A DNA stretch of 64,000 nucleotides from assembly GCA_016210485.1 (NCBI GenBank), contig JACQUD010000059.1, positions 20,800-84,799 on the forward strand, read 5' to 3'. This DNA is from Chloroflexota bacterium. Its GTDB lineage: Bacteria > Chloroflexota > Dehalococcoidia > JACQUD01. Both the position numbers and the translations under genes were made by a program. Below the pieces are notes generated by a model. It saw only the letters and a list, made by a program, of their open reading frames with translations, did not search any database and was not told the DNA's origin. Positions 13,522-55,852 of this stretch are shown piece after piece. The first letter of the stretch is position 1, and each line of letters starts with the position of its first letter.

Positions 13522-13532
13522 GACCTTCCCTC

Positions 13533-13585: not shown

Positions 13586-13598
13586 CATCCGCTCCATG

Positions 13599-40153: not shown

Positions 40154-41668
40154 CTAGCTGTCGTTTCTTTTCTCAAAGTTTCGCAGGGTTTTATCCAGTT
40201 TATCTGAAGAAACATCCTCTTCTTCTGCATCAGCAGATTCTTTGGGTACGAACGAATCGCTGGAAACGCGCCGCAATCCGGGGTTAAGTTGCGTAGCAAA
40301 CGTAAGGCTACCGGACGATACAACTTTGCGGTATTTCCCAAGCTCACCTGTAATTACTGTAAGATGAACAGGCTTGCCTGTCTCCTTGAATTTTCTCTCC
40401 ACAATCTCAGCCACGGCATCGAACAAAGGTATTGACGGATGCTCATAACCCCATTCTGTTAGGGCAAATTTGCCTTTGACACCAATCCAAACCATGCCGT
40501 GCTGCTCGCGGCTCAGCACAGCGTGAATGTTACGTTCGGAGGACGGGTCATCCGGAAACATTGAATTGTAAACTAAGGAAATCTCTGAATAGTGCGCTGG
40601 TCTCCCGATGTGTCGAAGTACGGTATATACTTTTTGGGCCTTAGTTACGCGACTCCATACGGGTTGAGTTGCACTCTCAGCAAGAGTCTTAACGTCATTG
40701 GCCAGAAGGCACAGATTGCCTTTGGAATCTAAAAACTTCGCTATTGACTCTGGGTCAACTTCGTGCGGGTGCCATTCCCAAGGTCCGAGTTCCTGGACAT
40801 CCTTTGACGAAGCCCCTAAGATCACGATTTTTAGCTCGGGTAGCTCCGCAATGGGAATGCCCGCGCATTTGGCGGCGAATCTCCTGAGAGATGCCTGCAA
40901 AGAATCAGTGACGACAACAAGACTACCCTCTGCGCGCATAACATCACATAAGAATGCGCGGAGAAACACCCTGCGATTGTAACGCTGTATGAACCTTTTT
41001 CGCGCCTTATCCTCTAATTGGCGAACTCTCTCTCTGGTAACTCCAAGCCAACTACCAATCTCTTCAAGAGTCATTCTTCTCTCTACGCCGAAGCCTTCTC
41101 TAGCTAGCACAACTTGAACAAGTCTCCGTTCGAGTTTGGAAAGCGCTTCTCCGAGTGCTTCCTCTAACGGCTGGTTCAAGGCAGTAGCACGTACTTCAAT
41201 GTCTGCCAAGCTTTTCAGCAACTTGGTGGCATCTTCAAGGGCGAACAGTGATAAGTAGGAGAGAATATGTGCCAAGGGAAAGCAGTATTGGGCGGGTGTC
41301 CAAGCAGGGCCTACAAATCCGAAGCGCTCCCCAAAGTGCAAAGCCTCCTTCGAGAAAAATTCCCAACGACCAGTGGGGCGCAGGGAATTCATGAGACGCG
41401 TTAACTCACGTTCCGTCAGCCTTGCTTTGTGCGCCTGTGCCATTCTAATGTTCAGGCTGACAAACCACAGAAAGAGAGTTTTCTCTGGGACGAACCAATC
41501 CTCCTTCTCTCGACACAACGAAATATACCGAGAATCGTTAGCGAGAGCGCGTCGCACTGTCTCAGTGTCGATGTCTGATTGTGTGTAGTCAACAACTTCC
41601 GAAACGCTCAAGGCGTACGGCCGTGATGCGAAGGTTTCCAGAGTCTGAGCAATATGCTGCGTATCCAT
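40154..41668 (-). CDS. Sigma-70 region-4 HTH protein with C-terminal HARE-HTH-like winged helix (504 aa); island-1 component
   Basis: Central RRMTLEEIGSWLGVTRERVRQLEDKARKRF is a classic sigma-70 r4 HTH. C-terminal …KVYTVLRHIGRPAHYSEISLVYNSMFPDD…MVWIGVKGKFALTEWGY fits the HARE-HTH pattern. Low GC (~45-50%). Confidence 0.65.
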   Translation of the reverse strand: MDTQHIAQTLETFASRPYALSVSEVVDYTQSDIDTETVRRALANDSRYISLCREKEDWFVPEKTLFLWFVSLNIRMAQAHKARLTERELTRLMNSLRPTGRWEFFSKEALHFGERFGFVGPAWTPAQYCFPLAHILSYLSLFALEDATKLLKSLADIEVRATALNQPLEEALGEALSKLERRLVQVVLAREGFGVERRMTLEEIGSWLGVTRERVRQLEDKARKRFIQRYNRRVFLRAFLCDVMRAEGSLVVVTDSLQASLRRFAAKCAGIPIAELPELKIVILGASSKDVQELGPWEWHPHEVDPESIAKFLDSKGNLCLLANDVKTLAESATQPVWSRVTKAQKVYTVLRHIGRPAHYSEISLVYNSMFPDDPSSERNIHAVLSREQHGMVWIGVKGKFALTEWGYEHPSIPLFDAVAEIVERKFKETGKPVHLTVITGELGKYRKVVSSGSLTFATQLNPGLRRVSSDSFVPKESADAEEEDVSSDKLDKTLRNFEKRNDS

Positions 41669-41681
41669 AGTAGCAGATCGG

Positions 41682-42164
41682 TTAGACGGGAAAATCGCCC
41701 TTCAAGAGCCTTTCAGCAACCTTGCGCGTCCCCTTTTCGCAACGCCCCCAGTTTAATGAGGAGGGGATGAGTTCTTCTTTTACTAAATAGCGACGCAAGA
41801 TAACCACCTTCTCGAGCCATTTTCGCTTTACACCCAGGTCTCGAACTAGATGGTCGTAAAACCCGTCTATCTGAAGTGATATATGTTCTAGGTTGTCTCT
41901 TAGCCCAAACATAGTATCTCCGAGCTGCCAGATCTTTCTGGCAGGCGTAGGCGTATGATTCTTCCTAAACGCCTGTATCTCCGCTAACAACAGACGCATT
42001 GTTCTAATAGAGCGCGAATACGAATCAGCAGCGTTTTGCAAAACAGAACTTGGATCACTTTCCATTGAGATGATCCCATCAATAGAGAGAAACGCCATGA
42101 ATACTCCATCTCTAGGTTCAAAACACACAAAGGTCAGCTTGGGCGAGGTCACCTTTTCCCCCAA
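41682..42164 (-). CDS. Small partner protein (160 aa) of GHKL ATPase copy 1; paralog of 54573..55043
   Basis: Overlaps the GHKL gene by 16 nt. Alignable to the copy-2 partner (…IWQLGDTMFGLRDNLEH…LVRDLGVKRKWLEKVVILRRYL… vs …IYWLAGDEILSFLRRMDDLG…LARDVGVHESLLKRVISFRRRF…). Possible C-terminal HTH. Confidence 0.6.
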   Translation of the reverse strand: MGEKVTSPKLTFVCFEPRDGVFMAFLSIDGIISMESDPSSVLQNAADSYSRSIRTMRLLLAEIQAFRKNHTPTPARKIWQLGDTMFGLRDNLEHISLQIDGFYDHLVRDLGVKRKWLEKVVILRRYLVKEELIPSSLNWGRCEKGTRKVAERLLKGDFPV

Positions 42165-43675
42165 GCAGCCATCATTTTATCTAGGAACATAAGGTCTTGG
42201 GCCTCGCCCTCGCCAGCTAAGAATCTCTGGATGGCACTTCCTATGGCAAAAAGACTGTGGAGCCTTCTTGCTGTGCTATCGGTTCGAGCTTTCACATAGG
42301 ACGGATGCCCACTATTGATAACTACGCTATTGCCGTCCACCCAGGCTAAGTCCACTCTGGTAGGAGCTTCGGCGAAGGCGATTTTGGGACCTCGGCGTCC
42401 TGTTCGGCTGATGGGGGCAGCCGTCTCGTTTCCCTTCTCTTGATTTTGAACAAGCGCTTCGCCAGGCTCATTTCCTACATCGACAGGACTTGGGCCGTCT
42501 CCTCCGTTGCCTTCCCCGATGGGGAAAGTCTCCTCGGTCCCTTCTTGGATATCGGCTTTGATTGGGCCGCTATCGTTAGCTTGGAGAACGTCCTTCTTGG
42601 CGCGAAACCCAAAGAAATCTGCTAGCTCCGGAACATCTTTCACGAGCTTCTTAAGCTCCCGTTCTAGCTTCTCCGCTTCATCCGTACCTCCAATATCCAA
42701 AGACTGGATGCCCAGTGCTGCTAGCCAATTCTTGAACTCCACTCGAACAGGGTTATATAGACTTTCGAATTCTCTATGTTTCCCACGGCCACGGATAAAG
42801 TCCGTCTTAGCCGTGGTCAAGAAGTTAACAAATTTGGGAATCTCCACCAATCCGAAGATCCTCGGCCCAAGACTTCCCGGAAATTGATTAAAGAGGTCTG
42901 CTTTAATGACCTTGCCATAGGTGCACAGCAAAACACCACAAACATCTCCCCCGGCCGGGTACTCGGACGCAGCCAGGCCGAGAACGCCATAGCCTATCCT
43001 TTTGCCAACTCTAGTAGGGAAGAATTTCTTAACCATATCGAGGCTGAAGTCCCTCTCTATGTTACTAGGTATGACGGCCTGTCCGTTGACAGTGAATCTG
43101 AGATCGCTGGGGTAGTAGCCCATGCTCTTGTACAAGTCTAGGAACTGCATATCCAGAAGGGGAAGGTAGTGGTGGCGCAATAGTTTGATTAAGTCCTCAG
43201 ATGAAGAATACGAGACTCTTGTTTCTGCCCCAAATCTCACTTCTACCCTCGTGCCAGTTCCTGATAGATGCGTAGGTTGGATATCCTCCCATAACAGTTT
43301 TCTCTTCGACTCCAAATGCCAATTAGAACCACTAGAAAACATTTCACTGCGGGTCTCAGTGATCACCCTGTCCGAAATATTGAAGCTAATCTTTGCACCA
43401 ACACCGGCAAAGCCTATGCCTGTTCCTCGGGTCTTAAGACCAGCGGCGAAATCGTGGTACTCCTTGAACTGCGAATCGGTCATACCCTTGCCGTTATCGG
43501 CTACAACAAGGACTCTGTGATCAGTGTCATAAGAGATAGAAATACGTGATGCTCTAGCATCCAGAGCATTAGCCACGAGTTCCACAAACACTATCTCAGC
43601 TACTTCAAACGGGTACATTTCGGCTAAATCCCGAATCAGATTTTGGAAGTTCACGCTACTTTCGTGTGTACCCAT
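42149..43675 (-). CDS. GHKL (Bergerat-fold) ATPase of the MORC/MutL/Hsp90 class, copy 1 (508 aa)
   Basis: Motif I ELVANALDA, G1 DNGKGM, G2 GTGIGFAGVGAK, MutL/Hsp90-like GTGTRVEV. C-terminal acidic/Gly linker then …VVINSGHPSYVKA…. Start at internal ATG 43675 (RBS gagga), consistent with promoter TTGACT-18-TATACT at 43741..43770; the track ORF extended upstream. Confidence 0.75.
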   Translation of the reverse strand: MGTHESSVNFQNLIRDLAEMYPFEVAEIVFVELVANALDARASRISISYDTDHRVLVVADNGKGMTDSQFKEYHDFAAGLKTRGTGIGFAGVGAKISFNISDRVITETRSEMFSSGSNWHLESKRKLLWEDIQPTHLSGTGTRVEVRFGAETRVSYSSSEDLIKLLRHHYLPLLDMQFLDLYKSMGYYPSDLRFTVNGQAVIPSNIERDFSLDMVKKFFPTRVGKRIGYGVLGLAASEYPAGGDVCGVLLCTYGKVIKADLFNQFPGSLGPRIFGLVEIPKFVNFLTTAKTDFIRGRGKHREFESLYNPVRVEFKNWLAALGIQSLDIGGTDEAEKLERELKKLVKDVPELADFFGFRAKKDVLQANDSGPIKADIQEGTEETFPIGEGNGGDGPSPVDVGNEPGEALVQNQEKGNETAAPISRTGRRGPKIAFAEAPTRVDLAWVDGNSVVINSGHPSYVKARTDSTARRLHSLFAIGSAIQRFLAGEGEAQDLMFLDKMMAAWGKR

Positions 43676-43740
43676 GTTATCCTCGTTTAGATAATTCAAA
43701 ATATGACAATTTAAACCGTCGGACACCCGCTCCCGGGGCC

Positions 43741-43770
43741 AGTATAAGCCCGCCCCGAAAGCAGAGTCAA
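43741..43770 (-). promoter_or_regulatory. Candidate promoter of GHKL module 1 (TTGACT - 18 nt - TATACT, minus strand)
   Basis: Hexamers read on the minus strand about 65 nt upstream of the GHKL ATG. Confidence 0.4.
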
Positions 43771-43836
43771 TTGTTTGCGATGAGGGTTGGAATGGGATAT
43801 ATCCCAAAATGCCCTGACGGGCGCAAAATGGGGAGA

Positions 43837-44925
43837 CTATGCTCCCAGCACCACCTGTATCTCCTCCCGCCAGGCCTCCACTTTCAGGGCGAAGGCCCGC
43901 ACCAGGCCGAAGCTCCCGGAGAGCATCATGTCGCCGTGGGGGATGGCGAAATAAGGCTTCAGAATCGATTCCGCCATCAGCGCTCGCCTGGGCCCGGTGA
44001 CGGCCAGGAATGGCTTGCTATCCCTTTTCTCCAGGATGAGGCAGCCGTGGCCATGGTCGTCGAAGACCTCCTGAGAGGAGAGCTCCCCGGAGAGGAACCT
44101 GCTCAGGTAGCCGTCCAGCTTCTGGGTGGTGAGCTGGCCGGTGTGATGCTCGAAGAGTCCCAGGATGGCGTCGCCCCGCAAGCGGCAGGCCATGGTGTGC
44201 ATGTTCCCCAGGTTGACCACCAGCCGCTCCCGGCGTCGCCTCACCTCCCCATCTTCCAGCGCGCCCAGAGCGCCCAGCGGGGCAGTGTCCATGAGGAGGA
44301 GGGGGACATCCAGGCCGGGCAGGCTGTCCGCCACCGCCCTCATCCGGGTGAGGAAGTCCGGCACCTCCGAGGCCAGGAAAATGAAACTGGAGAAGTCGTT
44401 CCTCTGCCTCATCGCCTTGGCTAGATAGTCGAAGCGGAAGCGGCGGTCGCTCACCTCGGGCGGGGCGGCTCCGTGGTCTAGAACGCCTATGCTAAGAGCA
44501 TCGAAGTCTAACCTCACGCCGAAGCTAGAGAAGGCCTGCCCCAGGGCTTTCAAATCAACGTCCCGCAACTCAATGACTTCCGCCCCTTTAATTTGGCGGG
44601 CCTCGTCCTCGGAGACCAGCTTCACCCCCAGGGCCTCCACCTGGGAGAGGTCATCGTCGAAGGAGCGGGCGGCATCGGGGGTGGCGTAGGCGGGCAGGCC
44701 GGCCCTGATGTGGTCTTTGACAGCCCCCTGGTTGGGGCCACCGCCCATGGTGAAGCCGGTGAGGACGATGGGCTGCCCCCTTCGCGTTGCCACCTCAATT
44801 CGCCGGGCCACGATGTGGGTGGGCGAGGGCATGACCATCTTGAGGCAGTTCTCGATGGGCACCGAGCTATCGAAGAGGAGGATGTCCTGGGTGCCGCCAC
44901 CGATGTCTATGGCCAGGATGCGCAT
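43837..44925 (-). CDS. ASKHA-fold (actin/sugar-kinase-like) protein, DUF1786-like (tentative)
   Basis: MRILAIDIGGGTQDILLFD… N-terminal phosphate-1 motif of the acetate/sugar kinase/Hsp70/actin superfamily. 362 aa. High GC (core genome). Confidence 0.7.
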   Translation of the reverse strand: MRILAIDIGGGTQDILLFDSSVPIENCLKMVMPSPTHIVARRIEVATRRGQPIVLTGFTMGGGPNQGAVKDHIRAGLPAYATPDAARSFDDDLSQVEALGVKLVSEDEARQIKGAEVIELRDVDLKALGQAFSSFGVRLDFDALSIGVLDHGAAPPEVSDRRFRFDYLAKAMRQRNDFSSFIFLASEVPDFLTRMRAVADSLPGLDVPLLLMDTAPLGALGALEDGEVRRRRERLVVNLGNMHTMACRLRGDAILGLFEHHTGQLTTQKLDGYLSRFLSGELSSQEVFDDHGHGCLILEKRDSKPFLAVTGPRRALMAESILKPYFAIPHGDMMLSGSFGLVRAFALKVEAWREEIQVVLGA

Positions 44926-44937
44926 TTCGTCCTCGGC

Positions 44938-45651
44938 TCAGGACAGCTGGATATCGGATTCGTCTTTGGCCCTCTGGAGGAACTCGGTGAGGATACCCGT
45001 CTTCATTTCATTCCTCTCCCGGTAGGGAGAGACGAACTTCCCTTTGAGCCACAGATGCTGGGGCTCGATGTGGATCTGGGTGCGCGATTTCTCCTGGGCC
45101 TCCTTGAGGAAATCGGGATAGCCATCTCGAAAGGCCACCTGGGCTTCCGCGACGTATTTGGAGTCTGCCTGGCTAATGATGTCCTCCAGGAGGTGGCAGG
45201 CCTTGGCTACATCGCTTTTGGGGGTCAGAGGTATCCTGACCTCGTCGAAGATATAATCGCACTGGACCCTAGAGCTCCCCTTGATATACTCCTTGGAGTA
45301 GTTGAGGACAGGCTGGTCCAGGACGATGAGGTTGGGGATGTGGAGAAGCCTCCCCGTCAGCTCCCCGCCCAGCTTCTCATCCTCTCCCACCTCCTCCAGG
45401 ATGAAGTGGAAGAGGCCCACTTGCCGGACATCCCCTTTTATGTTGCCTATCCTGACCCGGTCGCCCACATCAAAGACCCGGGAGAAGGTGATAAGCAGGT
45501 AGCTGGCTATGCTGGCCACATATTTTTGCAGGGCCAGGGCCAGGGCCACGGCGATGAGGGGCATGTAAATGCTGACCCCTTTGAAGAAAAGGGGAGAGGC
45601 GGCAAAGAAGGCCACCACAAGAAAGAGGATTATGAGGATGGCGTATCTCAT
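44938..45651 (-). CDS. Small-conductance mechanosensitive channel (MscS family)
   Basis: …FDVGDRVRIGNIKGDVRQVGLF… MscS beta-domain signature. Confidence 0.85.
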   Translation of the reverse strand: MRYAILIILFLVVAFFAASPLFFKGVSIYMPLIAVALALALQKYVASIASYLLITFSRVFDVGDRVRIGNIKGDVRQVGLFHFILEEVGEDEKLGGELTGRLLHIPNLIVLDQPVLNYSKEYIKGSSRVQCDYIFDEVRIPLTPKSDVAKACHLLEDIISQADSKYVAEAQVAFRDGYPDFLKEAQEKSRTQIHIEPQHLWLKGKFVSPYRERNEMKTGILTEFLQRAKDESDIQLS

Positions 45652-46931
45652 TTAGCTCGGATGACCTCCAGCCCAACCATATAGGGCCGCAGCACCTGTG
45701 GGACGACTACCGAGCCATCGGCCTGCTGGTAGTTCTCCAGGATGGCGATGACCACCCGGGGCAGGGCCAGGCCGGAGCCATTCAGGGTGTGGACGAACTG
45801 GGGCCGCGTCCCCGCCGAGGGACGGTAGCGGACATTGGCCCGGCGGGCCTGGAAATCCAGGCAGTTGGAGCAGGAGGAGACCTCCAGCCACTCCCCGCAG
45901 CCGGGGGCCCACATCTCCAGGTCGTAGGACTTGGTGGCGGCGAAGCCCAACTCCCCGCTGCAAAGCTGGACCACCCGGTAGGGAAGCTCAAGGCGTCGGC
46001 ACAGGTCCTCGGCGTCGGCTGTCAGTTTCTCCATCTCGGCGTCAGAGTCCTGGGGCTCGGTGAACTTGTAAAGCTCCACCTTGTCGAACTGATGCCCCCG
46101 CTTTATCCCTCGGATGTCCTTCCCGGCGCTCATCTTCTCCCTGCGGAAACAGGGGGTGTAGGCCACGTAGTGGAGGGGGAGGGAGCCGGGGGGGAGTATC
46201 TCATCCCGATGCAGGTTGGTGAGGGGGACCTCGGCGGTGGGCACCAGCCACAGGTCCTCCTCAATGTCTCGATAGAGATTGTCGCTGAACTTGGGCAGGC
46301 TGCCCGTGCCCTCCAGGCAGTAGCCCTTGACCAGGAAGGGTGGATAGATCTCGGCATAGCCGTGCTCCTGGACATGAGTGTCCAACATCCATTGAATGAG
46401 GGCACGCTGGAGCCTGGCGCCGGCCCCCACCATGACATAGAAGCGGGAGCCGGAGAGCTTTACCCCTCGCTCGAAGTCCAGGATGCCGAGCTTCTCCCCA
46501 ATCTCCCAGTGGGGGCGGGGTGTGAAGGAGAAAGCATTAGGCTCGCCCCATCGGCGCACCACCACGTTATTCTCCTCACCTAGGCCCTCGGGGACGGAGG
46601 CGTCCACCAGGTTAGGGATAGTAAGGAGCAGGCCCCGGAGCTCGGCCTCCAGACGTTTCTGCTCGGCCTCCAGGGCCTCCAGGCGCTCCCCCAGGCTGCG
46701 CATCTCCTGCGTATGCCTGTGCATCAGTTCGTGGGGCCTTTCCTTCATGGTAGCCATTTTCTTATTGGCCTCGTTGCGCTGGGCGCGGAGGGACTCGGCC
46801 TCGTAGAGGAGGTGGCGGTGCTGGGCATCCAGCTCCAGGGCCTGATGGGCCAAGGCTGGGGACTCGCCCCGCTTGCCCAAGGATTCGACTACCAGGTCGG
46901 TGTTTTCCCGAATGAGCTGAAGGCTGAGCAT
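45648..46931 (-). CDS. serS: Serine--tRNA ligase
   Basis: MLSLQLIRENTDL… coiled-coil N-arm and class II core. Start at ATG 46931 with RBS taggagagct located inside the lysS 3' end. Confidence 0.95.
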   Translation of the reverse strand: MLSLQLIRENTDLVVESLGKRGESPALAHQALELDAQHRHLLYEAESLRAQRNEANKKMATMKERPHELMHRHTQEMRSLGERLEALEAEQKRLEAELRGLLLTIPNLVDASVPEGLGEENNVVVRRWGEPNAFSFTPRPHWEIGEKLGILDFERGVKLSGSRFYVMVGAGARLQRALIQWMLDTHVQEHGYAEIYPPFLVKGYCLEGTGSLPKFSDNLYRDIEEDLWLVPTAEVPLTNLHRDEILPPGSLPLHYVAYTPCFRREKMSAGKDIRGIKRGHQFDKVELYKFTEPQDSDAEMEKLTADAEDLCRRLELPYRVVQLCSGELGFAATKSYDLEMWAPGCGEWLEVSSCSNCLDFQARRANVRYRPSAGTRPQFVHTLNGSGLALPRVVIAILENYQQADGSVVVPQVLRPYMVGLEVIRAK

Positions 46932-46938
46932 AGCTCTC

Positions 46939-48450
46939 CTAATCCCGCATTTGCGGGAACAGTATAACATCCCGGATGGAGGGGCTATCGGTCAGCAGCA
47001 TGGCCAGGCGGTCTATACCCACCCCCAGCCCCCCGCAGGGGGGCATGCCATATTCCATCGCCTGAAGGAAGTCCTCATCGGGCAGGTCTGCCTCCTCATC
47101 CCCGGCCTGGCGCAGCCGGGCTTGCTGGGCGAAGCGCTCCCGCTGCTCCACAGGGTCGTTGAGCTCGGTGAAGGCATTTGCTATCTCCATCCCGCCGATG
47201 AAGGCCTCGAAGCGTTCCACCAGGGAAGGGTCCTGGGGCTTGGCCTTGGCCAGGGGTGAGAGCTCTGTGGGGTAGTCCAGGAGGAAGATGGGCTGGATGA
47301 GGTTCGGTTCCACCTTCTCCGAGAGGAGTCGGTCAATGAGCTTGCCCCGGCCCATTGCTTTGTCAACCTGGATGTCCAGGGAGGCCACCTTAGCTCGCAG
47401 GGCGTCGGCGTCCCGATACTCCTGAAAGTCGATGCCGGTGCGCTGGAGGATGGCCTCCCGCAGGGCGAGGCGGGGCCAGGGGGGGGTCAGGTCTATCTCC
47501 TGGCCGTTGTAGCTGATTTTAGCAACCCCAAGGACATCCCCGGCTACCGCAGCCACCATCTCCTCCACCATAGCCATGACGTCCCGGTAATCGGCGTAGG
47601 CCTGATAGCTCTCCAGGGTGGTGAACTCCGGATTGTGGCGGCTGTCGATGCCCTCGTTGCGGAAGATGCGGCCTATCTCATACACTTTGTCGAGGCCGCC
47701 GATAATGAGGCGCTTGAGATGGAGCTCCGTGGCGATGCGCAGGTAGAGGTCTCGATCTAAGGCGTTATGGTGGGTGATGAAGGGGCGAGCCATGGCCCCC
47801 CCGGCTTTGCTCTGGAGCACCGGCGTCTCCACCTCCAGAAACCCTCGACTGTCCAGGAAGCATCGGATGGCGGCGATGACCCGGCTCCGCACTTGAAAAG
47901 CCGACTTCACCTCCTGGTTGGCGATGAGGTCCAGGTAGCGCTGTCGATAGCGGGCCTCGGTATCAGTGAGGCCATGCCACTTCTCGGGTAGGGGGTGGAG
48001 GGCCTTGCTCAGGAGGACGATGTCCTTGGCCTCCAGGGAGACCTCGCCGGTGCGGGTGCGCAACATCTTCCCCTGGGCACCCACGTGGTCACCGATGTCC
48101 AGGTCTTGAAGGAGAAGCTGGGCTTCTGGGGACAGGTTGCGGGTGGATAAATAGAGTTGGACCTTGCCCGAGCTATCCCGCAGGTCCAGGAAAGTCAGCT
48201 TGCCCATGCCCCGCCGGGCCACGATGCGCCCGGTCAGGGACACATCCGGCAAAGGGAGAGAACCCGACCGCTCCGCCTCTTCAAAAAGGGACGCTGCCTC
48301 CTGAGCGGTATGGCTTCGATGGCAGCTCCTGGGATAGGGGTCTATGCCCCGCTCTCTCAGCCGACGCAGCTTGAGCCGCCGCTGCTCCTGTAAGGTTTCC
48401 TTCCCTCCGGACATCTTGGATTGCTCGCTACCAGCCTCATCGCCTCTCAC
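46939..48450 (-). CDS. lysS: Lysine--tRNA ligase (class II)
   Basis: OB-fold anticodon-binding N-domain plus class II catalytic core. 4-nt overlap with greA. Confidence 0.95.
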   Translation of the reverse strand: MRGDEAGSEQSKMSGGKETLQEQRRLKLRRLRERGIDPYPRSCHRSHTAQEAASLFEEAERSGSLPLPDVSLTGRIVARRGMGKLTFLDLRDSSGKVQLYLSTRNLSPEAQLLLQDLDIGDHVGAQGKMLRTRTGEVSLEAKDIVLLSKALHPLPEKWHGLTDTEARYRQRYLDLIANQEVKSAFQVRSRVIAAIRCFLDSRGFLEVETPVLQSKAGGAMARPFITHHNALDRDLYLRIATELHLKRLIIGGLDKVYEIGRIFRNEGIDSRHNPEFTTLESYQAYADYRDVMAMVEEMVAAVAGDVLGVAKISYNGQEIDLTPPWPRLALREAILQRTGIDFQEYRDADALRAKVASLDIQVDKAMGRGKLIDRLLSEKVEPNLIQPIFLLDYPTELSPLAKAKPQDPSLVERFEAFIGGMEIANAFTELNDPVEQRERFAQQARLRQAGDEEADLPDEDFLQAMEYGMPPCGGLGVGIDRLAMLLTDSPSIRDVILFPQMRD

Positions 48451-48920
48451 TCTATAGCGACGATAGTCATGACTACCGGTCCCGCAGGCACCATCACGGC
48501 GATCTCATCCCCCACCCTGCGGCCCAGCAGGGAACGGCCTACAGGCGACTCGTTGGAGATTTTTCCGTCGCCAGGGCTAGCCTCGGCACTCCCCACGATG
48601 ATGTAATGCTGCTCCTTCCCTCCCTGAGGGCGCACCGTAACCTTGGACCCCAGAGTGACGAAGGGCGGATGGGCCTCCTCAGAAGAGATGAGGACTGCGT
48701 TCTGAATCATGCCTTCCAGCGTCAGGACGCGCCCCTCCACAAAGGCCTGAAGATTCTTGGCATCCTCATACTCTGCGTTGTTCACCGTCCCCCCCATCTC
48801 CTTGGCACGCTGGAGTACCTCCGCCACCTCATGGCGGCGAACGGTGCGCAGATACTCCAACTCTTCCTGGAGCTTGGCCAAACCTTCGGGAGTCAGGTAA
48901 ACATCTTTGTGGGCCATCAT
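48447..48920 (-). CDS. greA: Transcription elongation factor GreA
   Basis: MMAHKDVYLTPEGLAKLQEELEYL… coiled-coil plus FKBP-like domain. Confidence 0.93.
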   Translation of the reverse strand: MMAHKDVYLTPEGLAKLQEELEYLRTVRRHEVAEVLQRAKEMGGTVNNAEYEDAKNLQAFVEGRVLTLEGMIQNAVLISSEEAHPPFVTLGSKVTVRPQGGKEQHYIIVGSAEASPGDGKISNESPVGRSLLGRRVGDEIAVMVPAGPVVMTIVAIE

Positions 48921-48933
48921 CCTATCTCCAATG

Positions 48934-48968
48934 AAAAAAGACTGAGGCGAATACTAAATCGCCCTCAG
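48934..48968 (-). terminator. Intrinsic terminator inside the greA 5' leader (GraL-like leader attenuator)
   Basis: Minus strand reads CUGAGGGCGAU-UUAGUAU-UCGCCUCAG followed by UCUUUUUU, about 12 nt upstream of the greA RBS GGAGAUAGG. Confidence 0.55.
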
Positions 48969-49207
48969 TTGACCCCATTATAAGTACCTTGTGGGGTATT
49001 GTAAAGGCCTGGGTAGAGAGTCCTGGACAACATCTGCCGTTCACACTCACCTGAAATTGAGACCATAAAGCTTTGCCCCCGGCCCTAATGTTTGGAGTGG
49101 AGGCCTCAAAAGCATGGCTGTGAGGGAAGAAAAACCCCTCTGATGACTCTATATGGGACAAAAGTGATACCAGCCTGGGTGATGTCAAGAGAAAGGGAGA
49201 AGGCTTA

Positions 49208-49585
49208 ATGTATATAGAGAAACTGCTCAGGCTATCAAATATAGCTACGGAAGTGGATAAACATCAGGAGTCTGAGGTGGCAGGTAAAAAATTGCTAGTC
49301 AGCGACCCTAACCGGCAGCTTGTCATCCTGTATATTTTTATACGCTGCCCCTTCGAACGCTACGATAGTAGTAGGTGCTATAACGCAATGAACAGCCTGG
49401 AGATACCCGGTGTTGCCCCTGCCACAGCTTTGAGCGAAGCCCACGTTGCCATCATCAGGGTTCAGCTTTGTTGCCGGGCATACTCGGGAGATCAATCTAG
49501 ACAGACCTTGCTTCAAAGGCCAGCAGCTCGATTTGATCCTGATATGATGAGAGTCTTCCTTCGCTTTCTGGAGTCTCGAGGTTAA
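49208..49585 (+). CDS. Questionable 125-aa ORF in the low-GC spacer (possibly non-coding)
   Basis: Good RBS aagggagaagg-5nt-ATG, but the product is Cys/Arg-rich with no recognisable features. Confidence 0.2.
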   Translation: MYIEKLLRLSNIATEVDKHQESEVAGKKLLVSDPNRQLVILYIFIRCPFERYDSSRCYNAMNSLEIPGVAPATALSEAHVAIIRVQLCCRAYSGDQSRQTLLQRPAARFDPDMMRVFLRFLESRG

Positions 49586-49625
49586 AGCTCCCACGAGAGC
49601 ATTTCCTTGACCCTCCCCCCCTCCG

Positions 49626-50105
49626 GTGCTATCATGGCGGCGAGGAGTTGCCTTGTTCCCCTGGAGAGTGAATGTTTATGTAGCTGATAGCTTCCAGGGC
49701 CTGGTGAAGGCAGCCCGGCTGCGGAAGGTAGCGGCTAAAACTTTGGAGGCCTATGGTGGTGGGAGGCCGGGGAAGACGAGCCTGGCCATCGTAGGGGACG
49801 AGGAAATGCGTCGGATGAGCAAAGCTAGCCGGGGCCTGGACGAGGTAACCGATGTCCTTTCTTTTTCTTTTGAGGCGGGGGATTTCCCCCGCCGACCTCG
49901 CTCCCTGCCTCTCCTGGGCGAGGTAGTGCTTTGCTATCCCCAAGCGGAGCGCCAGGCACGAGAGATGGGACATCCAGTGGAGCGCGAGCTTTCTGTCCTG
50001 GTCATCCATGGCGTCCTCCATCTGCTGGGCTACGACCATGAAAAAGAGGCTGATGCGGAGTCTATGACGCAGGCCGAGGCCCATGCCCTGGCCCTCTTGA
50101 GTTAA
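49626..50105 (+). CDS. ybeY: rRNA maturation endoribonuclease YbeY
   Basis: C-terminal HGVLHLLGYDHEKE zinc-binding motif. Exact start uncertain (GTG 49626 or downstream). Confidence 0.82.
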   Translation: MLSWRRGVALFPWRVNVYVADSFQGLVKAARLRKVAAKTLEAYGGGRPGKTSLAIVGDEEMRRMSKASRGLDEVTDVLSFSFEAGDFPRRPRSLPLLGEVVLCYPQAERQAREMGHPVERELSVLVIHGVLHLLGYDHEKEADAESMTQAEAHALALLS

Positions 50106-50119
50106 GCTGGAACCAGACG

Positions 50120-51739
50120 ATGAGCGAAGTCCTCTACCGCAAATGGCGCCCCCAGGCCCTGGCCGAGGTGGTAGGGCAGGAGGCTGTCACTAAAACCCTG
50201 GGCAATGCCCTGGCCTCGGGCAAGGTGGCCCACGCCTACCTATTCGCTGGACCCCGGGGGACGGGGAAGACCAGCACCGCCCGCATCCTGGCTCGCGCTG
50301 TGAACTGCCTCCGGGAGGATGGCCAGAAGCCCTGCCAAGAGTGCCCCATGTGCCGAGCCTTCGCCCAGGGCCAGGCCCTGGACCTCATCGAGATCGATGC
50401 CGCCTCTAACCGGGGCATAGACGAGATTCGCGACCTCCGGGAGAAGGTGAACTTCGCCCCGAACCTGGCCCGATACAAGGTCTACATCATAGACGAGGCC
50501 CACCAGCTCACCGCCGACGCCTTCAGCGCCCTGCTCAAGACACTGGAAGAGCCTCCGCCCCATGCCATCTTCGTCCTGGCCACCACCGAGCCTCACAGGG
50601 TACCCCTCACCATTCTGTCTCGATGTCAGCGCTTCGACTTCCGCCGCATCTCCTCCTCGGCCATGGTTGCCAGGCTGGAGCAAATTTGTACCGGGGAGGG
50701 CATTCGGGCCGAGGCCGAGGCCCTGGCCCTCATCGCTCGCGCCGCCGGGGGCAGTCTTCGAGATGCCCTGAACCTGCTGGAGAAGGCGGTAACCTATTAT
50801 GGGTCTGATATCGGCCTCCGCCAGGTGCAGGAGGCCCTGGGCCTGGTGGATAGCGCCCGACTCAGGGAGCTGGCGAGCCACCTTTTGGGTCGAAACCTGG
50901 CGGCGGGCCTGGCTGCCATAAGCGACGCCGGCAACAACGGCGTAGACCTGCGCCAGCTTCAGCGCGGGCTGATGGATTATCTGCGTAACGTGCTCCTGGT
51001 CAAGGCCGGAGCGGGAGATGGGGTGGATGTGGGGCCGGAGGACAAGGCCGAGCTTATCAAGCTGGCGGCGACCACCTCGGCGGAGGAGGTCATGCGCGCC
51101 CTTCGTTTGCTGTCCCAAGAGGTGAGGGTGGAAGGACAGCCTGCCCTCTCCCTGGAGCTGGCCCTGGCTGAGCTCTGTCTATCCCGGGAGGAGCCATCGC
51201 CTCCGCCTTCCCAGCCCCGTGTGACGGCCCCCAGGGCCGAGGCCAACTTCCCTAGATCCAACCCACTCCCTCGGCCCGCCCCTGCTCCTCCCCAGCCCCG
51301 GCCCGCCCCCAAGGTCGAAGCTCCCAGAGCTGAGGCCCCCAAGCCCGCCCCCCGGGAGAGGGGCCCCATGCCCATCGAGCCGGCGGCTCGGCTGGAGTTC
51401 CTCCGGGCCAACTGGCGGCGGCTCCTAGGGGAGGCTCCTCCCCCGCTCCGCAGCAGCAATGGGGTGGCTTTCCTGCGCAGCAGCCAGCCAGTCTCTCTGG
51501 AGAACAACATCGTGGTGATAGAGTTCCGCCATGAATTCCACTGCCGGGAGCTGGAGAAGGCGGAGAATAAGCACCAAGCCGAGGAGTTTCTGAGCCAGTT
51601 GCTGGGATCGCCTTGCCGGCTCCGCTGCGTGGTCTCGCAGGCCCTGACCCAGGCGGCCTCGGACCCGCTGGTGCAAGAGGCCATGCGCTGGGGAGGCAGG
51701 ATAGTGAATGTAGAGACGGAGGGTCACGTAGATGAATAG
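50120..51739 (+). CDS. dnaX: DNA polymerase III subunit gamma/tau
   Basis: MSEVLYRKWRPQALAEVVGQEAV…GPRGTGKTS… AAA+ clamp-loader motifs and zinc module CxxC. Confidence 0.95.
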   Translation: MSEVLYRKWRPQALAEVVGQEAVTKTLGNALASGKVAHAYLFAGPRGTGKTSTARILARAVNCLREDGQKPCQECPMCRAFAQGQALDLIEIDAASNRGIDEIRDLREKVNFAPNLARYKVYIIDEAHQLTADAFSALLKTLEEPPPHAIFVLATTEPHRVPLTILSRCQRFDFRRISSSAMVARLEQICTGEGIRAEAEALALIARAAGGSLRDALNLLEKAVTYYGSDIGLRQVQEALGLVDSARLRELASHLLGRNLAAGLAAISDAGNNGVDLRQLQRGLMDYLRNVLLVKAGAGDGVDVGPEDKAELIKLAATTSAEEVMRALRLLSQEVRVEGQPALSLELALAELCLSREEPSPPPSQPRVTAPRAEANFPRSNPLPRPAPAPPQPRPAPKVEAPRAEAPKPAPRERGPMPIEPAARLEFLRANWRRLLGEAPPPLRSSNGVAFLRSSQPVSLENNIVVIEFRHEFHCRELEKAENKHQAEEFLSQLLGSPCRLRCVVSQALTQAASDPLVQEAMRWGGRIVNVETEGHVDE

Positions 51740-52037
51740 GGATATGCTGCGCCAGGCGCAGAAGCTTCAGGCCCGCCTGACCCAGGCCCAGGCCGAGCTG
51801 GAGTCGGCCACGGTGGAGGGCAGCGCCGGGGGCGGCGCCATCACCGTGACCGTGACGGGACAACAGAAGGTTACCGCGGTGAAAGTCTCGCCCGAAGCCC
51901 TGGAGGGTGCCGACAGGGAGATGCTGGAGGACCTCATCTTGGCGGCGGTGAACGATGCCCTGGATAAGGCTCGGGACCTGGCCGCCCAGCGCCTGGGGGC
52001 CATCACCGGCGGCCTCAACATACCCGGCCTGATGTAG
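51732..52037 (+). CDS. ybaB: Nucleoid-associated protein YbaB/EbfC
   Basis: MNRDMLRQAQKLQARL…VTGQQKVTAVKV… ; overlaps the dnaX stop. Confidence 0.92.
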   Translation: MNRDMLRQAQKLQARLTQAQAELESATVEGSAGGGAITVTVTGQQKVTAVKVSPEALEGADREMLEDLILAAVNDALDKARDLAAQRLGAITGGLNIPGLM

Positions 52038-52045
52038 GGGCGCAG

Positions 52046-52651
52046 GTGGAGAAGGGCGGCGCGGCACCTCCCATCGCCCGGCTCATGGCGGAGCTGACCA
52101 GGCTGCCAGGCATCGGCCCCAAGACCGCCGCCCGGCTCACCTATCACCTCCTGCGCCGACCCAAGGAGGAGGCCCAAGCCCTGGCCGAGGCCATCGTCGC
52201 CCTTAAGGAGCAGACCGTCCTCTGCTCCCGCTGCCAGAACCTATCCCAGGCCGACCCCTGCCCCCTGTGCTCTAGCCCGGAGCGGGACGGAGGCCTCATC
52301 TGCGTGGTGGAGGAGCCTCTGGATATCCTGGCCCTGGAGCGCACCGGTCGCTACAAGGGCCTGTATCACGTCCTCCACGGGGTGCTGTCGCCCCTGAACG
52401 GCGTCGGCCCCGACGACCTGAAGGTTCAGGAGCTTGTGGAGCGTTTGAAGGGGGGTGGGGTGAGGGAGGTCATCCTGGCCACCAACCCCAACGTGGAGGG
52501 CGAGACCACCGCCCTCTACCTGCACCGGCTTCTCCTGCCCCTGGGGGTGCGGCTGACCCGCCTGGCCCGGGGCCTGCCCATGGGGGCCGACCTGGAATAC
52601 GCCGACGACGTTACCCTGACCCAGGCGTTAGAGGGGAGACGGGAGTTTTAG
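52046..52651 (+). CDS. recR: Recombination protein RecR
   Basis: …LPGIGPKTAARL… HhH, Cys4 zinc finger CSRCQN…CPLC, Toprim. Confidence 0.95.
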   Translation: MEKGGAAPPIARLMAELTRLPGIGPKTAARLTYHLLRRPKEEAQALAEAIVALKEQTVLCSRCQNLSQADPCPLCSSPERDGGLICVVEEPLDILALERTGRYKGLYHVLHGVLSPLNGVGPDDLKVQELVERLKGGGVREVILATNPNVEGETTALYLHRLLLPLGVRLTRLARGLPMGADLEYADDVTLTQALEGRREF

Positions 52652-52693
52652 GAGAAGAAGTCTCGGATGTTGGTCGGAAGAGTCTCACGCCCC

Positions 52694-52921
52694 TTATTTT
52701 AACCTGACGAAGACCTTCTCCCCTTTGGTCATAACTCGAATTTCCTTGCCCAAATTCTTAGCAACCTTGCGATAGAGATGGGATACTTTTCTCGGGGTAT
52801 CTCGGCCCGTAGGTGTTACCTCTATGGCATTATCAGAGCTTAACTGGTTAAGAAATTGTTCTGCTTCACGCTCTCCCGGTCTCTTCTTTAGCTCAGAAAG
52901 AGCAACGATACGTGTCCTCAT
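52694..52921 (-). CDS. Small basic hypothetical protein (75 aa), divergent from GHKL module 2
   Basis: ATG at 52921 with strong RBS aggagg-5nt. Lys/Arg-rich; possible DNA-binding regulator. Low GC. Confidence 0.5.
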   Translation of the reverse strand: MRTRIVALSELKKRPGEREAEQFLNQLSSDNAIEVTPTGRDTPRKVSHLYRKVAKNLGKEIRVMTKGEKVFVRLK

Positions 52922-52934
52922 TGTGTCCTCCTAT

Positions 52935-52963
52935 TTGACATTCGTATGTCTCCATGTTAGCAT
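52935..52963 (+). promoter_or_regulatory. Candidate promoter of GHKL module 2 (TTGACA - 17 nt - TAGCAT)
   Basis: Hexamers read directly, about 90 nt upstream of ATG 53053. Confidence 0.4.
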
Positions 52964-53052
52964 CTTTTTTGTAAGTAATCAAGGGTATTTTGGAGCTTAT
53001 AGAGATAAGCTTAAGGGCATTGCCCATAGAGGTAGTTGAGTGTAGGTGTCTT

Positions 53053-54585
53053 ATGGGTGAAACTCGGGTAAACCTGAAGCATCTTCTGGAGAACTTAAGG
53101 GACTCATATCCATTGCCTTTAGAAGAGGCCATCGTTACCGAGTTAGTAGCTAATGCCCTTGATTCCAAAGCTTCGAGGATTGGCTTTACTGTAGATTCAG
53201 GTGAGTGCTCATTGTCAATTGTGGATAATGGCGCGGGGATGAAACGCGAAGAGTTCGAGAAGTATCACGATATTGCTGAGACCACTAAGGAAAAAGGACG
53301 AGGGATAGGATTTGCCGGCCAGGGTGCCAAGTTGTCTTTGTTGGCAGTAAGGTCGGTGCAGACGGAAACGAAGACAAGTGAGGGGTCCTTTTCCACTGCG
53401 TGGCATCTTGAAGATGACTATCATGCCCCTTGGGATTTTATTCCTCCTTTGGGCCTTGTTGGTACACAGACAGGGACAGCAATCAAAGTTCTTCTGAGAG
53501 AAAAACAAAGCGATCTGGCAAATTCGACTTTCGTGATTAGGACTATTCAGAAATGGTTTGCTTCCCTCTTAGAAAAGGATTTCATGCCCAAAGCCCTTAG
53601 AGAAGTGTACCCAAGCGGAGTCTTTTTCGGCGTAAATGGGAGGATGGTGGAGCTATCCCAAAGTTCGGTGTTTCATGACTTTGCCACTGGCTATAAGCTC
53701 AGGCCTTTTGAAGTGCGACTTAAAAGGAAGCAGGTAGGAATTGGATTCCTTGGAAGAAGTATCCGCTCTTTGAAAGAGGAGGAAAGGGGCCTGGCGATAT
53801 CTGTGTTGGGTAAGGTCGTAAAGCGGGGTTGGGAGTGGGTGGATGTTTCTCCGAAAGACCGCAAGTTCATATGGGGCATGGTTGAAGTCCCCGCTCTCTC
53901 CACAATTCTTGCGACAAACAAATGCGACTTCTTGTCCGACGTGTCGAGCAAGACAAAGTATTACCAGTATCGCAAGGCTATTGTTGTGGCCATACAGCCC
54001 ATCCTACGTGCCATGGGCGAGTTGCCTGAGGCTGAGCCTGAAGCGCTACCGCAAGCGTTGGCAAAAGAAATCCGAATGGTCCTTGAGGAACTTCTGCCCG
54101 ATTTCCCTGAGCTGGAACCACTTTTGGATAAGCAGGGACGAGGGGAAAAGGTTAGCACGGTTCTGCCCGACCCTGCTGCCGATCCGGCAGGGGGCGTGGA
54201 GCAAGGGGTGGCTAGTGTAACTGGAGACCAGGGAGGGGTTGGGCAAGGAGCGGGAGTTGATGTTGGGCCAGGCACGGGGCCTGGTGAAAGGATTTCCCCA
54301 GAAGCTCCGCTTACAGAACCAGGTAGGCAGCATGAGGGAAGGCGCAGGCTTCCTGGGCTTATGATCCGCTATGAAGACAAACTAGAGGAAGAACTAGGGC
54401 GATTGGAAGGAATTACCATATTCATAAATAAGGGGCATCCTGCTTACAGAAAAGTTGCCGACTCAAAAAGCCTGGAGAATTACCATACTTTTCTAACGAT
54501 AGCTTGGGTGTTGTCAAAAAACCTTGCTGATGGAAGGTCTCCCCAGGGATTCATAAATCAGTTCCTTAGGATTTGGGGGGGTTAA
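53053..54585 (+). CDS. GHKL (Bergerat-fold) ATPase of the MORC/MutL/Hsp90 class, copy 2 (paralog of 42149..43675)
   Basis: ELVANALDS, DNGAGM, GRGIGFAGQGAK, GTAIKV. Gly/Pro/acidic linker then …ITIFINKGHPAYRKV…. Collinear with copy 1 over the full length at roughly 25-30% identity by eye. Alternative TTG start at 52990. Confidence 0.75.
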   Translation: MGETRVNLKHLLENLRDSYPLPLEEAIVTELVANALDSKASRIGFTVDSGECSLSIVDNGAGMKREEFEKYHDIAETTKEKGRGIGFAGQGAKLSLLAVRSVQTETKTSEGSFSTAWHLEDDYHAPWDFIPPLGLVGTQTGTAIKVLLREKQSDLANSTFVIRTIQKWFASLLEKDFMPKALREVYPSGVFFGVNGRMVELSQSSVFHDFATGYKLRPFEVRLKRKQVGIGFLGRSIRSLKEEERGLAISVLGKVVKRGWEWVDVSPKDRKFIWGMVEVPALSTILATNKCDFLSDVSSKTKYYQYRKAIVVAIQPILRAMGELPEAEPEALPQALAKEIRMVLEELLPDFPELEPLLDKQGRGEKVSTVLPDPAADPAGGVEQGVASVTGDQGGVGQGAGVDVGPGTGPGERISPEAPLTEPGRQHEGRRRLPGLMIRYEDKLEEELGRLEGITIFINKGHPAYRKVADSKSLENYHTFLTIAWVLSKNLADGRSPQGFINQFLRIWGG

Positions 54586-55043
54586 TCATGGGGGATAAGT
54601 TTCCGCTCATCGTATCGCCAGAAAAAGATTCCAAGGGTGAGTTCAAGGTTGCAACCTCTTTTCAAACTCTGCTGGACGCATCTCGAAGCGTGCGCAAGGA
54701 CTTAGAATATGTTGAACAAGACTATGCGCTTTTGATAAGTAACCTTCGCTGTTTGCTCATTAGAAGTGGCACGAGTGGAAGGCGAGACCCGCGTATTTAC
54801 TGGCTTGCCGGAGATGAAATATTAAGCTTCCTTCGACGTATGGATGATTTGGGCTTTTTTCTACATCAACAGAATAAAACGCTGGCAAGAGATGTGGGAG
54901 TACATGAAAGCTTGCTCAAAAGGGTTATCTCATTTCGCAGGCGCTTTCCGCTTCTTTCTCAGGTTGACCCTTCTATCTTGTGGACTAGATACAGGAGCAA
55001 TGCAGTCCCGCTACCCGGGAGCGAAAAAGATCAAGGTGTTTAG
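54573..55043 (+). CDS. Small partner protein (156 aa) of GHKL ATPase copy 2; paralog of 41682..42164
   Basis: Overlaps the GHKL gene by 13 nt. Alignable to the copy-1 partner. Ends at the recO start. Confidence 0.6.
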   Translation: MGGLIMGDKFPLIVSPEKDSKGEFKVATSFQTLLDASRSVRKDLEYVEQDYALLISNLRCLLIRSGTSGRRDPRIYWLAGDEILSFLRRMDDLGFFLHQQNKTLARDVGVHESLLKRVISFRRRFPLLSQVDPSILWTRYRSNAVPLPGSEKDQGV

Positions 55044-55852
55044 TGCCCCGCCCCCGCACCTATAAGACCGAGGCCATCGTGCTGAAGGCCGCCCGCCTGG
55101 GGGAGGCCGACAGGCTCCTCACTATGTTCACCCCCTCCCTGGGCAAGGTGCGGGCCGTGGCCCGGGGCGCCCTCCGCCCCAAAAGTAAGCTGGCCGGCCA
55201 CCTGGAGCCTTTCACCCGCGCTTCCCTCATGCTGGCCCAGGGCCGCACCCTGGACGTGGTCGCCGGCGCCCAGGCCCTGGAGGCCTTCCCCACACTCCGC
55301 GCCGACCTGGAGCGGACGGGCCTGGCCTTCTACCTGGCCGAGCTGGTGGACCGCTTCACTGCCGAGGGCCAGGAGAGCTATCCCATATACGCTTTGCTTC
55401 TGGAGGCCCTGGGCTGGCTGGACAAGGCTCAGAAGGTGGGCCTGGCCCGCCCAGCCTTCGAGCTTCAAGTGCTCCGGCTCTCGGGGCATGGCCCCCAGCT
55501 ATCCCATTGCCTGAAGTGCCGAGCCGAGATAAAGGGCGCTGCCGCCTTCTCGTCGGCCTCCGGCGGGGCGCTCTGCCCTATCTGTGAGAGAGATGCCCCC
55601 GATGCCCGCCCCCTCTCCATCGCCGCTCGCCGGGCCATGGTCTATCTCCAGGGCAGCGCCTTCTCCCGGGGGGCCAGGGTCAAGGTGCCCACAGCAGTGG
55701 AGCGGGAGATGGAGGGGCTGCTCCAGGGATACATAGCCTACGTGCTGGAGCAGAGCGTCAAATCGGCGATCTTTTTGGAGCGGCTGAGGCGGGAGGACGT
55801 CAGCGCTGCCGCTGCACCGAATAGTCGGCCATATCCAGAAGGGCCTGCCTGA
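55043..55852 (+). CDS. recO: DNA repair protein RecO
   Basis: (GTG) PRPRTYKTEAIVLKAARLGEADRLLTMFTPSLGKVRAVARG… OB-fold plus zinc-binding CLKC…CPIC. Confidence 0.88.
   Translation: MPRPRTYKTEAIVLKAARLGEADRLLTMFTPSLGKVRAVARGALRPKSKLAGHLEPFTRASLMLAQGRTLDVVAGAQALEAFPTLRADLERTGLAFYLAELVDRFTAEGQESYPIYALLLEALGWLDKAQKVGLARPAFELQVLRLSGHGPQLSHCLKCRAEIKGAAAFSSASGGALCPICERDAPDARPLSIAARRAMVYLQGSAFSRGARVKVPTAVEREMEGLLQGYIAYVLEQSVKSAIFLERLRREDVSAAAAPNSRPYPEGPA

Follow-up and report, generated by a model that had tools for sequence, protein, structure and literature searches.

Two distantly related versions of a widespread, undescribed MORC-class ATPase cassette in a Chloroflexota contig: a candidate defence or conflict module

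We analysed a stretch of 64,000 nt of contig JACQUD010000059.1 from a Chloroflexota bacterium, hereafter the window, and located in it two distantly related versions of one widespread, undescribed gene cassette. Copy 1 lies at 40154..43675 and copy 2 at 53053..55043. Each encodes a predicted ATPase of the GHKL superfamily and a small basic partner, and copy 1 also encodes a protein with a sigma-70 region 4. Since the cassette moves between phyla and sometimes adjoins restriction enzymes, we regard it as a good candidate for a novel system of defence or conflict, albeit an unproven one.

An earlier note on this DNA had described four open reading frames (ORFs) here, an ATPase-partner pair in each copy, and we found all four where it had placed them. 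The two-gene description is right for copy 2, but in copy 1 the third gene had been overlooked. When the whole window was scanned with local hidden Markov models (HMMs), no further copies were found. The genes of the two copies are the following:

42149..43675, minus strand: GHKL1, 508 amino acids (aa), predicted MORC/Hsp90-like GHKL+S5 ATPase of the three-gene subtype (subtype 1), relatives at 60-77% identity
41682..42164, minus strand: Partner1, about 156-160 aa, basic, isoelectric point (pI) 9.4, helical
40154..41668, minus strand: third gene of cassette 1, 504 aa, sigma-70 region 4, start 13 nt past partner1
53053..54585, plus strand: GHKL2, 510 aa, predicted ATPase of the two-gene subtype (subtype 2), domain layout and motifs as in GHKL1
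54573..55043, plus strand: Partner2, about 151-156 aa, basic, pI 9.6

The two ATPases are collinear from end to end, as had been claimed over ~510 aa, and their identity is low (28% over 523 columns, E 2e-50). The Bergerat-fold motifs I-IV (E-x3-N-x2-D; D-x-G-x-G; the glycine-rich ATP lid; G-T) are all present, which places both proteins in the GHKL superfamily. In an alignment of 34 sequences of both subtypes, E32, N36, D39, D60, G62, G64, G84-G93 and G141 are invariant. So are K255 in the second domain, N454 and H457, and the IN-x-GHP-x-Y motif near the C-terminus; the motifs quoted in the earlier note are real and correspond to invariant columns. Pfam HATPase_c_3 scored 49 bits on GHKL1 and 46 on GHKL2 (cut-off 25), and HATPase_c_3 / HATPase_c, at the N-terminus only, were the sole Pfam matches. 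Both proteins also have an S5-type transducer domain with the conserved phosphate-sensing lysine of the GHKL+S5 class. Judged by these features, the ATPase is a predicted MORC/Hsp90/MutL-class GHKL+S5 enzyme with intact catalytic motifs, in agreement with the MORC/MutL/Hsp90 branch without HisKA that had been proposed.

The ATPases are not an ordinary MutL, HtpG or sensor kinase. We rejected these identities because the scores were far under the curated cut-offs. The MutL model TIGR00585 gave 29.6 and 34.4 bits (cut-off 180) and covered only ~45 N-terminal residues, the HtpG/Hsp90 model NF003555 gave 24.3 and 15.4 bits (cut-off 371), and histidine-kinase models gave 12-20 bits (cut-offs 300-1000). 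The C-terminal endonuclease domain of MutL is lacking, HisKA did not match and the ATPase domain begins at residue ~25.

After the transducer, both proteins continue into an acidic, disordered linker rich in glycine, proline and glutamate (pI ~4.3), and past it into a basic alpha/beta domain of ~80 residues. The middle domain is basic too. We rejected the C-terminal domain as a protease or nuclease, since Pfam and PDB sequence searches returned nothing for it and an HExxH is missing; neither this metal-binding helix of the zincin metallopeptidases nor a variant is present in it. Just before this domain (residues ~400-432 of GHKL1 and ~402-440 of GHKL2) the linker holds short conserved motifs, P-G-E-x-[IL] followed by G-R-[RK]-x-x-P-G in subtype 2 or by P-I-S-R-x-G-R-R-G-P-K in subtype 1. 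Their role may be that of a docking or regulatory peptide.

Among solved structures, those nearest to the ATPases in sequence are Hsp90-family N-terminal domains (Grp94 homolog, E 5.6e-10, residues 40-207). In the fold comparison, MORC proteins scored above Hsp90, and the C-terminal domain weakly resembled the HtpG dimerisation domain. A rival reading is a portable proteostasis or regulatory cassette, an Hsp90-like chaperone or stress module in which a divergent N-M-C Hsp90 relative would act on protein clients. Its partner would then assist or regulate it as a co-chaperone might, and transcription would be controlled by the sigma-region-4 protein as a dedicated factor. Besides the Grp94 match, the disordered acidic linker is Hsp90-like, and both the high sequence conservation and the host-like GC content of relatives that have no partner (see below) fit such a role. 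Nevertheless, the HtpG model scored 24 bits against a cut-off of 371, MORC beat Hsp90 in the fold comparison and the partner is unlike any known co-chaperone. The distribution is patchy across phyla, the islets deviate in GC, and co-oriented restriction-modification genes lie directly upstream in two whole subclades. We therefore regard the chaperone module as unlikely.

The partners were expected to be ~155 aa long and mutually alignable, and this was borne out. Pairwise, Partner1 and Partner2 share 22% identity (E 3e-5). Their homology is firm at the family level, since Y49, W79, G82 and W139 are invariant in an alignment of 32 sequences. The structure model of Partner1 (predicted local distance difference test score, pLDDT, 91.6) has an N-terminal beta-hairpin, two long helices and a helix-Gly-helix at residues 102-126 that resembles a helix-turn-helix (HTH). 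As to charge, the pI is 9.4-9.6 for the whole partners and 9.7-10.1 for their C-terminal halves. With the partner profile we retrieved 400 proteins, 137-168 aa long and all devoid of Pfam domains, from contigs that also carry the ATPases. No PADLOC model matched either partner and no resemblance to known co-chaperones was found. The HTH was also rejected as a homolog of sigma region 4; hhalign aligned that stretch with 0.3% probability.

Both partners had been reported to overlap the 3' end of their ATPase by 13-16 nt. The tight coupling stands; the overlap length probably does not. The ATG starts of GHKL1 (43675, preceded by a GAGGA ribosome-binding site) and GHKL2 (53053) are backed by homolog N-termini. 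Partner1 most likely starts at GTG 42152 rather than TTG 42164, which gives a 4-nt GTGA overlap with the GHKL1 stop. For Partner2, ATG 54588 is the most likely start rather than TTG 54573, 2 nt past the GHKL2 TAA.

The third protein of copy 1 has a complete sigma-70 region 4 at residues ~164-238 (Pfam 38 bits, cut-off 24), which is closest to SigA region 4 (PDB profile match, E 6e-14). Sigma regions 2 and 3 gave no match even at E<=5 in four members of the family. With region 4 and no region 2, the protein was rejected as a sigma factor of the sigma-70 family. It contains several further conserved domains for which no family match was found, including a winged-helix-like stretch at ~336-412. 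A likeness of this stretch to HARE-HTH was first seen by eye. PF05066 matched 1 of 25 members (E 0.049), and the PDB profile search gave nothing relevant for the ~336-412 stretch. There are 241 relatives at 50% clustering (E<=1e-30), and in the longer ones no fused effector domain was found apart from one Zn-ribbon. The basic pI of the partner and the SigA region 4 match of the third protein are indirect indications that both may bind nucleic acid.

To follow the cassette in other genomes, we fetched 90 loci and scanned them with local HMMs, which left 50 non-redundant loci with a partner. Three architectures were distinguished:

Three-gene architecture: ATPase, partner and sigma-region-4 protein; 24 non-redundant loci, including window copy 1
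Two-gene architecture: ATPase and partner; 26 non-redundant loci, including window copy 2
Solo architecture: ATPase with no partner within 6 kb and with unrelated downstream genes; 33 loci in the GC comparison

The partner was directly downstream of the ATPase in the 50 non-redundant loci, and the third gene was found in 24 of 24 loci of the three-gene subtype. Pairwise identities correlate between ATPase and partner (r = 0.92) and between ATPase and third gene (r = 0.88), and conservation falls from the ATPase to the partner to the third gene. Translation of the partner is coupled to that of the ATPase, and the two co-evolve. Conservation of the partner beside homologs of the ATPase in other genomes, which mattered to the module proposed earlier, is supported by these loci; a third set of relatives, the solo one, has no partner. 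In the neighbour-joining tree the three-gene type forms one clade, and the two-gene and solo types are interleaved. The solo ATPases (L033-L090, e.g. L064, L072, L079 and L087) come from Acidobacteriota, Nitrospirota, Gemmatimonadota and the Candidate Phyla Radiation (CPR). The genes 3' of them are mutually unrelated and include a glycosidase, UvrA, a Pif1 helicase and Fic, and in GC these ATPases are level with their flanks or above them.

Each ATPase has more than 740 relatives at 90% clustering, nearly all metagenomic and annotated as 'hypothetical' or 'ATP-binding protein'. When GTDB species were scanned with one genome for each, the ATPase turned up in at least 451 species genomes, nearly all uncultivated. 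The hosts belong to Chloroflexota, Armatimonadota, WOR-3, Omnitrophota, Planctomycetota, Acidobacteriota, Nitrospirota, Gemmatimonadota, Thermotogota, CPR lineages and others. Protein searches also returned archaeal relatives, which by NCBI name are proteins of Methanospirareceae and Thermoproteota metagenome-assembled genomes (MAGs).

The nearest relatives of GHKL1 are 77% identical and occur in other organisms; across phyla, identity within subtype 1 is 55-77%. GHKL2 has a 100% identical counterpart in a Chloroflexi MAG, and its other relatives are at 42-52%. Since outside relatives reach 77% and 52% and the two copies share 28%, the window copies are separate horizontal acquisitions of two ancient subtypes and not an in-genome duplication. 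The earlier note had taken them for old paralogs rather than a recent duplication. It was right that the split is old; that they were maintained separately in one genome does not hold, with closer relatives lying in other phyla.

The genomic behaviour of the cassette was examined next. The low-GC islets noted earlier are real, with a GC of 0.49 in both islets against 0.61-0.62 in the flanks; copy 2 is 13 points under its flanks. Across the family, the three-gene cassette falls short of its flanks in GC at 23 of 24 loci, and the average deficit is 7.6 points. For the two-gene type the deficit is 2.3 points, and the solo type exceeds its flanks by 1.8 points. The flanking genes are unrelated from locus to locus, close relatives excepted. 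Where contexts were called, they were mostly housekeeping genes, with toxin-antitoxin pairs near a few loci. At the islets there is no integrase gene, and neither repeats flanking them nor genes for tRNA or other RNA were found. Taken together, the cassette is a self-contained unit that moves between phyla.

A phage or plasmid origin was tried and rejected, as the GHKL and partner profiles had no relatives in 2.9 million IMG/VR contigs and the GHKL2 protein had none among PLSDB plasmids or INPHARED phages. Viral relatives of the third protein were limited to the generic sigma region 4. In one Dehalococcoidia MAG, an IS3-like insertion element has disrupted the ATPase gene of a three-gene cassette (L061:7017-8317). 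This element encodes a 94-aa OrfA and a 314-aa DDE OrfB on the opposite strand, and the cassette copy is inactivated.

Both window copies are surrounded by ordinary chromosomal genes. Copy 1 is flanked by a DUF1786 gene and an HI0933-like flavoprotein gene, with serS, lysS and greA nearby. Copy 2 sits between recR and recO, in the arrangement ybeY-dnaX-ybaB-recR / recO-polyprenyl synthase. A second locus, L010, is syntenic with copy 2: RecR, YbaB, DnaX, RecO and YbeY are 62-85% identical between the two, the ATPases 51% and the partners 46%. The gap from recR to the ATPase differs. L010 has a DUF6922 gene and an 87-aa ORF there and the window a 75-aa ORF, so this spot is variable. The stop of Partner2 abuts the start of the recO ORF (55043; window 55041-55045), and the corresponding gap in L010 is 5 nt. 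Since the stop abuts the start, recO may be read through from the inserted cassette.

The recR/recO position raises a DNA-repair or chromosome-maintenance role, with a MutL/MORC-like clamp and a DNA-binding adaptor, which would explain why copy 2 lies within the dnaX-ybaB-recR / recO cluster both here and in L010. The N-terminal domain is MutL-like and the solo relatives resemble resident genes. However, the recR/recO site is limited to these two related genomes and the neighbours elsewhere are unrelated. The GC deficit of copy 2 does not suit a resident repair gene, the endonuclease domain of MutL is absent and MutL models reached 30-34 bits against 180. Two subtypes in one genome, a patchy distribution and a copy disrupted by an insertion element fit accessory genes. 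A repair factor is in our view quite unlikely.

We then scanned 134 flanking proteins against Pfam and PADLOC. The commonest neighbour families were those of type IIG/ISP restriction-modification: Eco57I, N6_Mtase and MmeI_Mtase from Pfam, and REase_MTase_IIG and mad2 from PADLOC. In 7 of the 50 partner-bearing loci, a type IIG/ISP gene on the same strand ends at most 61 nt upstream of the ATPase. These loci comprise every member of two two-gene subclades and one three-gene locus. The genes are large and type IIG/ISP-like, with an N6-adenine methyltransferase core:

L013:2935-5940, ATPase strand, type IIG/ISP-like gene
L041:1529-4963, ATPase strand, type IIG/ISP-like gene
L046:1258-5972, ATPase strand, type IIG/ISP-like gene
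L060:2500-5990, ATPase strand, type IIG/ISP-like gene
L065:2724-5975, ATPase strand, type IIG/ISP-like gene
L069:2-196, ATPase strand, type IIG/ISP-like gene
L078:2714-5971, ATPase strand, type IIG/ISP-like gene

This arrangement would suit an accessory or regulator of restriction-modification, as proposed for paraMORCs, and such ATPases have a precedent in MORC/paraMORC genes of restriction-modification operons (PMC2292703). The window copies would then be orphans with an unlinked enzyme or inactive remnants. We find this improbable. The window contains no type IIG/ISP gene, and in 43 of the 50 partner-bearing loci, both window copies included, neither of the two closest genes on each side is one of restriction-modification. 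The cassette moves without the enzyme gene, and L046 and L060 have an intact ATPase and partner next to a restriction-modification gene that is broken up into 2-3 ORFs.

Toxin-antitoxin-type pairs were seen 1-6 kb from some cassettes, at L005:14391-15301 (HTH_3 and Gp49), L008:3290-3905 (VapB and PIN), L009:9079-9622 (nucleotidyltransferase and HEPN) and L010:4430-5031 (DUF6922 and a small ORF). The cassette itself could be a selfish addiction module of the toxin-antitoxin kind, in which one component is toxic, its neighbour neutralises it and the cassette is stabilised after transfer. Its two or three genes are compact, translationally coupled and mobile without recognisable mobility genes, and toxin-antitoxin pairs adjoin some loci. 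Against this, none of the components matched known families of toxins or antitoxins, an ATPase of 56 kDa whose catalytic site is fully conserved would be unusual in such a module, and solo ATPases occur without the partner. An addiction module is very unlikely.

Two further features lie at the window cassettes:

43741..43770, minus strand: promoter-like site upstream of GHKL1, TTGACT, 18-nt spacer, TATACT
52694..52921, minus strand: 75-aa basic ORF (pI 10.5, ribosome-binding site GGAGGA) that lies in the low-GC islet and reads divergently from GHKL2

The promoter-like site is a consensus match only, and the count of such sites does not exceed the chance expectation. The 75-aa ORF has no Pfam match and is not conserved at the other loci, and its membership of the cassette is uncertain. 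Distant from both cassettes, the window contains two tRNA-Ser genes at 4112-4199 and 4729-4818 (anticodons CGA and GGA). Other moderately low-GC kilobase bins are found at 5001-7000 and 13001-14000 (about 0.55-0.56).

Tentatively, we favour the reading that the cassette is a mobile, DNA-directed conflict or defence module of the MORC/paraMORC type. GHKL+S5 enzymes generally form a clamp when ATP binding brings their N-terminal domains together as a dimer. By analogy with the class, the cassette ATPase would form such a clamp too, and the partner would tether it to nucleic acid or load it there. Recognition of the target, at DNA or at RNA polymerase, would in subtype 1 fall to the sigma-region-4 protein. 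Invading DNA could then be trapped, compacted or blocked in its transcription in an ATP-dependent manner. Alternatively, the clamp might control a nuclease, either adjacent or unlinked, for example a type IIG enzyme like those upstream of some relatives. Such a role is in line with what comparative genomics suggests for prokaryotic MORC/paraMORC ATPases (PMC2292703).

What speaks for a conflict role is context: mobility, the GC deviation, the restriction-modification neighbours in 7 of 50 loci and the few toxin-antitoxin neighbours. It is unproven because there is no recognisable effector, the neighbourhoods are mostly non-defence and the solo relatives look resident. Several observations weigh against the conflict module. 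No nuclease, TIR, Sir2, protease or pore domain was recognisable in the three proteins, and matches to PADLOC models did not go past stretches that are generic to ATPases or sigma factors. Both in the window and at most loci, the cassette is surrounded by housekeeping genes and not by defence islands. Neither terminal repeats nor, at subtype-1 cassettes, a conserved operator, promoter or upstream DNA were found. For an immune gene, the degree of conservation of the ATPase is unusual. Finally, since solo ATPases occur without the partner and with host-like GC, the core ATPase may have a partner-independent, perhaps cellular, role.

A more specific variant is a nuclease-free immune system aimed at transcription, which we hold to be a long shot. 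Here, the third protein, built of primary-sigma region 4 and winged helices resembling those of RNA-polymerase factors, would serve as a decoy or guard for those RNA polymerase parts hijacked by phages, or as a reader of foreign promoters. Licensed by this protein, the MORC-like clamp and the HTH partner would entrap invading DNA and silence it. Such a system would be the bacterial counterpart of transposon silencing by eukaryotic MORCs, with the two-gene subtype as the minimal silencing engine.

To our knowledge, almost no ATPase of the bacterial GHKL/MORC class, from which eukaryotic MORCs arose, has been studied biochemically. The cassette joins an intact MORC-class clamp to an orphan partner fold and has no obvious killing domain. 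It is very common in uncultivated phyla, CPR included, and has been missed by screens of model organisms, plasmids and phages because its hosts are uncultivated. Should it be an immune system, it would point to a mode of action without nucleolysis and would make MORC function tractable in a bacterial model. Otherwise, it remains a large family without annotation that deserves a name.

We compared the cassette with known systems. The earlier note could not match the pair to a named system, and likewise PADLOC, NCBIfam and the literature yielded no named system and no paper describing the cassette. The PADLOC v2 matches were TmtA and REase_II, on short N-terminal stretches with the ATPase motifs (<=26 bits), and MzaA on region 4 (31 bits).

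Prokaryotic MORC/paraMORC ATPases are known from restriction-modification neighbourhoods by comparative genomics (Iyer, Abhiman & Aravind 2008, PMC2292703), and we set the cassette beside the MORC and paraMORC1-5 families as described there. With these MORC/paraMORC ATPases it shares GHKL motifs, an S5 domain with a conserved basic residue and a family-specific C-terminal extension. The sporadic, laterally mobile distribution and a subset beside restriction-modification genes are common to both as well. In contrast to them, most loci here, both window ones included, have no helicase, methylase or endonuclease partner. The orphan ~155-aa HTH-like partner and the sigma-region-4 protein are unmentioned in that paper (PMC2292703).

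Hsp90, HtpG and TRAP1 are the closest in N-terminal domain sequence and have, like the cassette ATPase, three domains and a disordered charged linker, in addition to the weak C-terminal resemblance to the HtpG dimerisation domain. However, the linker lies between the M and C domains in the cassette ATPase and between N and M in Hsp90. The HtpG models (24 versus 371 bits), the better structural fit to MORC and a genomic behaviour like that of mobile elements also set the cassette apart.

The anti-phage system MZA, whose MzaA is of the sigma-70 family, resembles the cassette in combining a sigma-70-region-4 protein with other components in a candidate defence operon, and MzaA is the best NCBIfam match of the third protein. 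MZA also includes a MutL-like GHKL protein. However, the MzaA match covers only the ~80-residue region 4 (53 bits, cut-off 800), no Mza model matches either ATPase at E<=0.1 and the other Mza components are not present.

In CapK-CapS, regulators of immune operons, a GHKL-fold protein is likewise adjacent to a small DNA-binding partner beside defence genes (PMC13373217). CapK is a small SpoIIAB-type anti-sigma-factor kinase and CapS a STAS-domain repressor, whereas the cassette has a 510-aa MORC-class GHKL+S5 ATPase and a non-STAS partner. With a different GHKL class and a different partner, we rejected this identity (PMC13373217); the likeness is thematic and not one of homology. Shedu type I-D VcSduA, a proven anti-phage protein, joins a GHKL domain to a DUF4263 PD-(D/E)xK nuclease (PMC12137116). 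It shares the N-terminal GHKL ATPase and a clamp-like middle domain with the cassette ATPase, but the latter's C-terminal domain has no nuclease motif and no DUF4263 match. The paraMORCs, MZA, CapK-CapS and GHKL-Shedu are the nearest named systems, and what the cassette has in common with them is a theme rather than membership.

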